Virus record (IMG/VR): IMGVR_UViG_2802429251_000007
Location: 1 to 30,664 of that record
Reading direction: 5' to 3' (one strand)
Origin: a virus
Taxonomy: Duplodnaviria > Heunggongvirae > Uroviricota > Caudoviricetes
Length of the DNA stretch: 30,664 bases
The position numbers and the translations under genes were made by a program. Positions within the stretch are counted from its first letter, which is position 1. Each line of letters opens with the position of its first letter. This document shows positions 1-872 of this stretch, one piece after another. The notes beneath the pieces are model-generated. The model saw only the letters and a list, made by a program, of their open reading frames with translations, made no database searches and was not told the DNA's origin.

Positions 1-792
1 ATGCAAGAAACCAAAGAAAATATCAGAAAACAGCTTTACGGGTTTTATATTGCTTATGATTTGTGGCTGAGTAATGGGGCGAAACCAGGTGGGGTGTTTT
101 CTCGAAATTATGGTTTATGCGCCAATCTTTTCGATTATCTCACATCAATCGGTACCTCCAGCGAAGCGGCACTGGAACAATTACACGCTGATTTCAGAAG
201 TGCCGGGCTGTATGAGGTGTTGCCATTTAACGAGAGTAAAGGGCATTACTATGAAGAAAAAGGGAACAACATGTGCCATATGAATCCGGCGCGGGTGGCG
301 TGGGTCAGGACGCAGATTGCACTGGTATCACTGGAAGCAGAGCCGATAGCAGTAAGCGACGACATGGCTTACGCATTCCATCACGCACTGTCAGATTCAT
401 CTCCAGGTGCTGATGAGGTAGAGGAAATTAAGGCCGGGTTGCGTGCAGCCTTTGCCAATGTCACCACCCAACCAGCACCAGTAGTGCCGGAATTTGAAAC
501 ATGGTTTAACAGCCAGGAGTCAGGGAGGAGTATATGCAGCACACAGATTCGTCGTTCCCTTCAGGAAATTTCATGGAACGCCTGCTGCGCCGCCATGCTT
601 CAGGGGAAAGACGATGGTATCCTCACCAATGAGGATACCAAAGGGGATGTTCAGGTACGGGAATTAACAATGTGGGTTAAACGACTGGTCAGTCAACTGA
701 AAAAAGCTAATCCAGACTGCAAATTACCGGAGATGGCGATGGACTACCTGAAGCGGAACGAACTGATAAGCGCGGAGGATGTTTTGCGATGA
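1..792 (+). CDS. hypothetical prophage accessory protein (263 aa), family not recognised
   Basis: ATG at 1 and uninterrupted 263-codon ORF; lies upstream of nin-like genes; may extend beyond the window edge. Confidence 0.45.
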   Translation: MQETKENIRKQLYGFYIAYDLWLSNGAKPGGVFSRNYGLCANLFDYLTSIGTSSEAALEQLHADFRSAGLYEVLPFNESKGHYYEEKGNNMCHMNPARVAWVRTQIALVSLEAEPIAVSDDMAYAFHHALSDSSPGADEVEEIKAGLRAAFANVTTQPAPVVPEFETWFNSQESGRSICSTQIRRSLQEISWNACCAAMLQGKDDGILTNEDTKGDVQVRELTMWVKRLVSQLKKANPDCKLPEMAMDYLKRNELISAEDVLR

Positions 793-872
793 CTTGGCCT
801 GAAGCATTCACAACGGTAGGAATTACAATGGCGGTGGCGCTGGTGGTGTATGCGATTTGCCGCTGGGGGTAA
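789..872 (+). CDS. small hydrophobic peptide (27 aa, MTWPEAFTTVGITMAVALVVYAICRWG)
   Basis: Not in ORF track (below size cutoff). ATG at 789 overlaps upstream stop (ATGA); GGAGG at 774-778; single TM-like helix. Confidence 0.25.
   Translation: MTWPEAFTTVGITMAVALVVYAICRWG

Follow-up and report, generated by a model that had tools for sequence, protein, structure and literature searches.

The analyzed window, a stretch of 30,664 nucleotides (nt) covering positions 1 to 30,664 of the IMG/VR virus record IMGVR_UViG_2802429251_000007, is a lambdoid prophage, and its bases 1-872 comprise the final pair of cistrons in an accessory block of early genes. The second of these cistrons, a 27-codon open reading frame (ORF; 789..872, + strand), is predicted to encode a single-pass membrane micro-protein of 27 amino acids (aa), MTWPEAFTTVGITMAVALVVYAICRWG. 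We consider it probable that this small ORF is a translationally coupled, autonomous membrane-peptide module which ends gene arrays of the Ea22/DUF551 type, and that its product acts as a modulator of membrane proteins. The preceding cistron (1..792, + strand) is an ATG...TGA ORF encoding a soluble mosaic early protein of 263 aa. Its stop codon (TGA, 790-792) overlaps the start codon of the small ORF (ATG, 789-791) within the sequence ATGA. A Shine-Dalgarno (SD) sequence, GGAGG, is located inside the upstream coding sequence at 774-778 (+ strand), with a spacer of 10 nt between it and the small-ORF ATG. In all of these coordinates and sequences the first-pass annotation of this DNA was correct.

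The pattern of sequence conservation indicates that the small ORF is a genuine gene under purifying selection. Among 88 distinct sequence contexts, it is exactly 27 codons long in 84, and 86 retain the stop/start overlap as either ATGA or TAATG. An SD core is present 5-18 nt upstream of the ORF in 35 of 39 distinct upstream sequences. The pooled ratio of nonsynonymous to synonymous polymorphism (pN/pS) is 0.26. Seven divergent copies (those of the window, 933W, Av-05, 813R1, L035, BP-4795 and PhiR12_2) show as many as 29 differences over 81 nt without any change in length, and the corresponding substitution ratio (dN/dS), which could be computed for 20 of their 21 pairs, falls between 0.09 and 0.57 in all 20. 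Variation is concentrated at third codon positions, with an entropy of 0.58 compared with 0.24 and 0.20 at first and second positions, respectively (a 2.4-3-fold difference), and the resulting substitutions are conservative and hydrophobic. In paralogues retrieved with tblastn the family-wide features are W3, P4, E/D5, A6, G11, A15, A17, Y21, R25, W26 and the length of 27 residues; Cys24 of the peptide is replaced by Phe in BP-4795. The first-pass annotation had allowed that the large protein might be a known replication or recombination protein of the nin region, accompanied by an unconserved small ORF, and neither half of that alternative holds.

The small ORF is an autonomous mosaic module and not the partner of one particular upstream protein. 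Its start codon overlaps the stop codons of at least five unrelated upstream C-termini: module D of the 263-aa protein in the window (..AEDVLR), DUF551 proteins (..PEPPQEVNQ), L0139 of 933W (..EQKVNQ), the "EaA" protein of Av-05/TH18 (..KKGMNQ) and ORF5 of BP-4795 (..PQEVK). DUF551 genes are its second commonest upstream neighbor. BLAST homology stops exactly at window position 872 in most loci, and breakpoints fall at 789 and 872, i.e. at both ends of the small ORF; three loci share only the segment 789-872, which in them is joined to a DUF551 gene. Numerous relatives of the N-terminal 200 aa of the 263-aa protein have no peptide gene behind them. The small ORF usually closes an Ea22/DUF551-type array, directly ahead of a moron slot occupied by hok/sok or another toxin-antitoxin (TA) system.

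No promoter-like site was found on the + strand before position 1131, i.e. none precedes the gene pair. The features expected of termination-reinitiation coupling were found, namely an overlap or near-zero gap between the genes and an SD sequence inside the upstream ORF. The translational coupling proposed in the first-pass annotation is supported by the conservation of the overlap and of the SD core described above. Ribosomes terminating on the upstream gene would restart at the overlapping ATGA or TAATG, aided by the SD sequence embedded in the upstream coding sequence; this course of events is suggested by the combination of that embedded SD sequence, the overlap shared across contexts and the lack of a promoter-like site on the strand.

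The peptide has a grand average of hydropathy of 1.10, and its best 19-residue segment, AFTTVGITMAVALVVYAIC, averages 2.1 on the Kyte-Doolittle scale, which is enough for one membrane helix. The earlier description of the small ORF as nearly all one hydrophobic helix was therefore accurate. Both the length of 27 aa and the predicted hydrophobicity profile, which is kept in all variants, are those of a small single-pass membrane protein. We propose that the peptide inserts into the inner membrane as a single helix. Arg25 would probably set the C-terminus in the cytoplasm and place WPEAF at the periplasmic interface, while W3/P4 and Y21/W26 are predicted to lie at the membrane interfaces. A face of small residues (G11, A13, A15 and A17) probably packs against a helix of a host or phage membrane protein. 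The small peptide would then modulate a membrane protein, or serve as an early exclusion factor, without being tied to one upstream protein. Its dependence on upstream translation, the lack of its own promoter and its presence in a virulent phage argue for a role in lytic or early development rather than in defense expressed by the lysogen. Expression in a repressed lysogen is not indicated, given the lack of a promoter-like site ahead of the pair on its strand.

Proteins with these general features are known. Small membrane proteins are encoded by a number of phages. Conserved, unannotated, hydrophobic small ORFs (smORFs) located near upstream stop codons constitute a recognized class in Enterobacteriaceae, and about 13% of the conserved hydrophobic smORFs that are co-directed with an upstream gene start within a few nt of its stop (PMC11188072), as the peptide gene does. 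KdpF, MgtS, MgtR, AcrZ, PmrR and the members of the "cryptic microproteome" (PMC11188072) resemble the peptide in being shorter than 50 aa, in forming one hydrophobic helix, in having been missed by annotation and in being under purifying selection. In contrast to these small enterobacterial membrane proteins, to which it bears no sequence relation, the peptide is phage-borne and mobile between phage lineages. Against the KdpF model (TIGR02115) it scored 12 bits, below the cut-off of 26.85. The peptide appears to represent a new family within the class of small membrane proteins, for which no relationship to KdpF, Hok/Gef or other curated families could be detected.

The membrane exclusion proteins of phages, such as Imm and Sp of T4, gp15 of HK97 and SieA of P22, are produced early or by the prophage and are 60-160 aa long. 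As is predicted for the peptide, they are small inner-membrane proteins of phage encoded in an accessory region, but the peptide is smaller, is unrelated to them in sequence, and has no PADLOC or PHROG functional match.

Several points weigh against the interpretation favored here. The invariance of MTWPEAF, Y21, C24 and W26 in a set of 120 loci is partly imposed by the search pattern with which the set was collected. In 72-76 of 77 variants, two antisense frames also remain free of stop codons over the 84 nt. The papers and supplements examined on small proteins of Escherichia coli and enterohemorrhagic E. coli do not contain the peptide sequence, no Ribo-seq or proteomic record of it was found, and the string MTWPEAF occurs in no paper; likewise, searches of Pfam, NCBIfam and PADLOC revealed no homology of the peptide to any characterized small protein. 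The modulator function is deduced purely from sequence features. Finally, the adjacency of the small ORF to hok/sok in 56 of 94 contexts may leave room for a hok-related role.

This adjacency leads to the possibility that the peptide is a membrane-damaging, type I toxin-like or holin-like protein that depolarizes the host early, perhaps together with the hok/sok block. Its small size and hydrophobicity are those of type I toxins such as Hok/Gef, TisB, DinQ and Ibs. The hok/sok cassette begins exactly 21 nt after the small-ORF stop in 40 of 94 contexts and is located within 700 nt in 16 more, so that the peptide gene adjoins it in most contexts. An identical small-ORF/hok junction occurs in 933W behind a different upstream gene, which shows that the two elements can travel together, although they are separable. 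However, no hok gene was found within 700 nt in the remaining 38 contexts, in which a hairpin and other cargo are present instead, e.g. a TA pair encoded on the opposite strand in ArgO145. The 27-aa product shows no similarity to Hok/Gef (PF01848), and no Rfam match at E ≤ 1 and no antisense RNA were detected over positions 789-872. Moreover, the predicted helix lacks charged or pore-lining residues, and, unlike the tightly repressed type I toxins, the small ORF has no promoter of its own and is constitutively coupled to upstream translation, not silenced. We therefore regard a toxin or holin-like function as unlikely.

In the first-pass annotation it was suggested, from the layout of the genes, that a soluble protein paired with a membrane peptide might form an exclusion or abortive-infection module. 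Such a dedicated two-component system, in which the peptide would be the partner of the 263-aa protein or of module D alone, is consistent with the translational coupling of the two genes and with their location in a hotspot of TA cassettes. The question whether the pair co-occurs in other prophages received a divided answer. A search with the C-terminal third of the 263-aa protein identified 29 IMG/VR loci whose match reaches the C-terminus, and the small ORF follows module D in 27 of them. On the other hand, it also follows at least four other unrelated C-termini, and modules A-C are widespread without it. PADLOC-DB 2.0 yielded no match for the peptide and only a chance-level match to a dGTPase (E 0.054) for the large protein. 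The pair lacks a promoter of its own, and the peptide gene is present in the virulent phage Av-05. Taken together, these data do not support a dedicated module, and we judge its existence distinctly improbable.

A broader association may also be envisaged, in which the 27-aa helix would be a membrane subunit shared by the whole Ea22/EaA/DUF551 mosaic family and the variable soluble early proteins, including Ea22, to which a pro-lysogenic activity has been ascribed, would be recruited to it or act through it at the inner membrane. If correct, this idea, to which we assign a similarly slim likelihood, would account in part for the ways, so far unexplained, in which these regions affect host physiology and the choice between lysis and lysogeny. 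No mention of a membrane ORF was found in the literature on Ea22 and the exo-xis region. Deleting the Φ24B exo-xis region lowers the expression of degP and htpX (PMC10789677). Loss of the peptide was considered as a cause of this effect and rejected, since in phages of the 933W type the small ORF is located beyond att, by hokW, and not between exo and xis.

It is very unlikely that the small ORF yields no functional product and has been conserved instead as an element of DNA or RNA, for example as a recombination junction, as sequence lying upstream of the hok promoter or as part of an antisense gene. The open antisense frames, the choice of antisense ORFs by gene callers at this site and the coincidence of mosaic junctions with the ends of the small ORF are compatible with this explanation. 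Nevertheless, the variation shows a codon-position periodicity that follows the sense frame, the ORF keeps its start and stop sites, and dN/dS remains well below 1 even at nucleotide divergence of 30% or more. The small ORF is conserved also where hok is absent, and no Rfam family matches it. In the window, the conserved block contains no start codon for one of the antisense frames, and that of the other lies in the flank, which is not conserved; an antisense gene is therefore unlikely.

Programmed -1 frameshifting at the overlap, which would fuse the helix to the upstream protein and produce a tail-anchored form, was rejected as extremely improbable: although the frame of the small ORF is invariably -1 with respect to the gene before it, the junctions GTTTTGCGATGA, GGTGAATCAATGA and GGTGAAATGATGA contain no X XXY YYZ slippery heptamer, a good SD sequence and an ATG or GTG start are conserved, and no fused protein is on record. 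None of the four rival explanations, i.e. toxin, dedicated pair, non-coding element and frameshift product, is favored by the data.

The small ORF was identified in 793 of 5,426 complete E. coli genomes (about 15%) and in 91-94 phage records, including those of 933W, VT2-Sakai, BP-4795, Av-05 and a Punavirus; at least 120 further viral loci came from a scan with a degenerate pattern. In a set of representative genomes covering 185,579 species, it was present in E. coli and Shigella flexneri only, plus one contig of 431 bp. This contig (NZ_JPLE01000323.1), labeled Xanthomonas pisi, carries the small ORF of E. coli phages and is most likely a contamination. The phages concerned are lambdoid, Shiga toxin-encoding (933W and BP-4795), P1-like and virulent Vequintavirinae (the myovirus Av-05). 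The genomic position of the ORF varies as well: it is on the pR side in the window, within the pL-side ea/exo-xis block in BP-4795 and PhiR12_2, and beyond att in 933W.

In all phage records inspected the small ORF is unannotated, and for the RefSeq E. coli matches listed the only annotated feature is the 4-nt overlap with the upstream gene. A few GenBank records label the peptide "hypothetical" or "bacteriophage protein". In BP-4795 an 84-nt ORF accounts for a previously unannotated gap of 87 nt between the DUF551 and DUF4222 genes. Divergent 27-aa paralogues, likewise unannotated, are encoded in BP-4795 (MNWPEAFTAVGVAIAVAFILYSLFRWG; locus L166, 2001-2084) and PhiR12_2 (MSWPDAIVTLGMVFAAAFVVYSICRWG; locus L167, 2001-2084), in both cases flanked by a DUF551 gene and a DUF4222 gene and located upstream of xis-int. 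The unannotated 933W copy corresponds to complement(58826..58909) of AF125520 (locus L165, 1027-1110, - strand), with its ATG at complement 58909. It overlaps the stop codon of L0139 and is located two genes after the gene encoding L0140, an Ead_Ea22+DUF551 protein; 21 nt separate its end from the hokW cassette that follows. The whole block lies on the attR side, across att from int and downstream of it.

Longer antisense ORFs have been called over the small gene in contig L162 (2414-2587, - strand) and in phage Min27 (ORF82; L037 1178-1750, - strand), and these are probably mis-annotations. A cluster built at 90% identity that contains the 27-aa peptide has as its representative a DUF551 protein of 121 aa that is unrelated to it (the cluster of P0121). 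Fusion of the peptide to such 121-aa proteins was considered and rejected, as the members show no fusion but only partial read-through fragments (GGESMTWPE...). The cluster is an artefact that arose through these fragments, and it could mislead automated annotation.

The 263-aa protein itself is an uncharacterized member of the pool of mosaic early proteins, of which λ Ea22 and P22 EaA are typical (PMC10834534). In agreement with its earlier description as unrecognized, it gave no Pfam match at E ≤ 1, neither to PF13935 (Ead/Ea22-like) nor to PF04448 (DUF551), no meaningful NCBIfam or PADLOC match, and no match among PDB sequences in single-sequence or profile searches. A protein-guided scan of genome contigs provided no confirmed relatives. 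Only PHROGs of unknown function match the protein, each on a separate part: residues 7-110 correspond to phrog_6418 and phrog_2510, and residues 105-263 to phrog_660. The N-terminus is complete even though the ORF begins at the first base of the window, because homologues share the start MQE(T/I)KEN and a 130-nt intergenic gap precedes the gene in the contig encoding P0001, a protein 96% identical to the 263-aa protein. Upstream of the 263-aa gene in the related contig L162, i.e. outside the window, a mini-ORF of about 24 codons (AGGAGG-N9-ATG; 1577-1665) overlaps the start of that gene in another frame; it may be a leader or a coupling ORF.

Alignment with relatives revealed that the protein is a chain of four modules. 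Module A (aa 1-110; 1..330, + strand) is an autonomous five-helix domain, distinguished by alignment and AlphaFold2 modeling. It is followed by the junction motif IALVSLEAEPIA and module B (aa ~105-165, with module B proper spanning ~117-165; 313..495, + strand; DDMAYAFHHALSDS..EEIKAGLRAAF), which form the most widely shuffled segment. Module C (aa ~166-205; 496..615, + strand; FETWFNSQ...WNACCAAMLQG) was distinguished by alignment and matches phrog_12449 and phrog_660. The helical module D (aa 206-263; 616..789, + strand; ..LKRNELISAEDVLR) matches phrog_660, phrog_924 and phrog_8171; of the C-terminal modules, it is the one that most often immediately precedes the small ORF. The modules are joined by short conserved junction motifs (IALxSLEAEPxA and WNACxAAMLQ), and each of them occurs alone or fused to others, including DUF551, Ead_Ea22, Lar and a dATP/dGTP pyrophosphohydrolase domain. 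Some module of the protein is matched by 1,264 representatives of clusters built at 50% identity; query residues 104-164, in the region of module B, are matched on their own by many of them. Ead/Ea22 (PF13935) was detected in 4 and DUF551 (PF04448) in 21 of 143 module-sharing representatives.

With Ead_Ea22, DUF551 and P22 EaA-like proteins the 263-aa protein has in common modules B and C, the junction motifs ALASLEAEPVA and WNACRAAML, the mosaic architecture and the genomic niche. Genes of this type stand ahead of the peptide gene in 933W, BP-4795 and PhiR12_2. Unlike such proteins, it contains neither PF13935 nor PF04448, and its N-terminal domain and module D belong to no Pfam family.

Structure prediction, which the first-pass annotation had recommended, succeeded for only one part of the protein. 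With a diverse alignment, the AlphaFold2 model of module A shows five helices with a mean predicted local distance difference test score (pLDDT) of 94.9 and a predicted template modeling score of 0.88, whereas the full-length model obtained from a shallow alignment is poor (pLDDT 47.5). Neither fold nor sequence searches with module A revealed a significant PDB counterpart. The module matches 16 uncharacterized phage proteins at E ≤ 1e-3, whose hosts are Achromobacter, Rhizobium, Burkholderia, Delftia, Klebsiella, Pectobacterium and Escherichia. Its PFN motif (P75, F76, N77) is invariant, and the residues GLC (G38, L39, C40), F15, W22, G26, E86, C92 and N95 are at least 90% conserved; Cys40 and Cys92, with neighboring histidines, might bind a metal. 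In module C, A194 and C195 are nearly invariant.

In related contigs the DNA upstream of the gene pair contains small early genes, including Ead/Ea22-like, DUF977 and replication genes. Downstream of the pair in the window there are, in this order, hok/sok, DUF1367, YbcO, a DUF1133/Q-like gene, c4/isrK RNAs, IS1, and holin, terminase and portal genes. The small ORF and hok/sok are separated by an insert of 273 nt (873..1145, + strand) that occurs in 8 of 94 contexts and is a neighbor, not a part, of the pair. Within it, immediately after the small-ORF stop, there is a terminator-like hairpin with a T-run (883-903, - strand); a hairpin is located directly behind the small-ORF stop in other contexts too. 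The insert also contains a second tiny hydrophobic ORF (1034-1123, + strand; VLVLKCALAIAAVMAIYCLAVVLMDRLSD, 29 aa) with a GTG start preceded by GGGAGG at 1023-1028. Searches of Pfam and PHROG gave no match for this ORF, and it is kept in seven close variants, which are too alike for a test of selection.

The hok/sok type I TA cassette (1146..1500, + strand; mok 1278-1490, hok 1335-1490) was identified with Rfam, which placed sok at 1166-1340 (108.6 bits), and with Pfam, which matched HOK_GEF (PF01848) to hok (77.9 bits). A promoter-like sequence of this cassette, TTGGCG-17-TAGAAT, is present at 1131-1159. The Rfam elements c4-a1b1, isrK and C4 antisense RNA are located just after the DUF1133/Q-like gene (3405-3606) and are followed by IS1 with InsA and InsB (3730-4427).

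Module A of the 263-aa protein defines an unnamed domain family distributed across phages of many Proteobacteria. If translated, the 27-codon gene would encode a widespread phage micro-protein, present also in the reference Shiga toxin phages 933W, VT2-Sakai and BP-4795. Virtually no annotation includes the gene, and some list antisense ORFs at its position instead. The gene is located inside regions (Ea22/exo-xis-type blocks and the hok neighborhood) whose deletion phenotypes are credited to annotated genes only. A single substitution, G791A, would change its ATG to ATA and the overlapping TGA to TAA, leaving the upstream protein unchanged, which makes the gene a small, cleanly mutable candidate for the unexplained effects of these accessory blocks.

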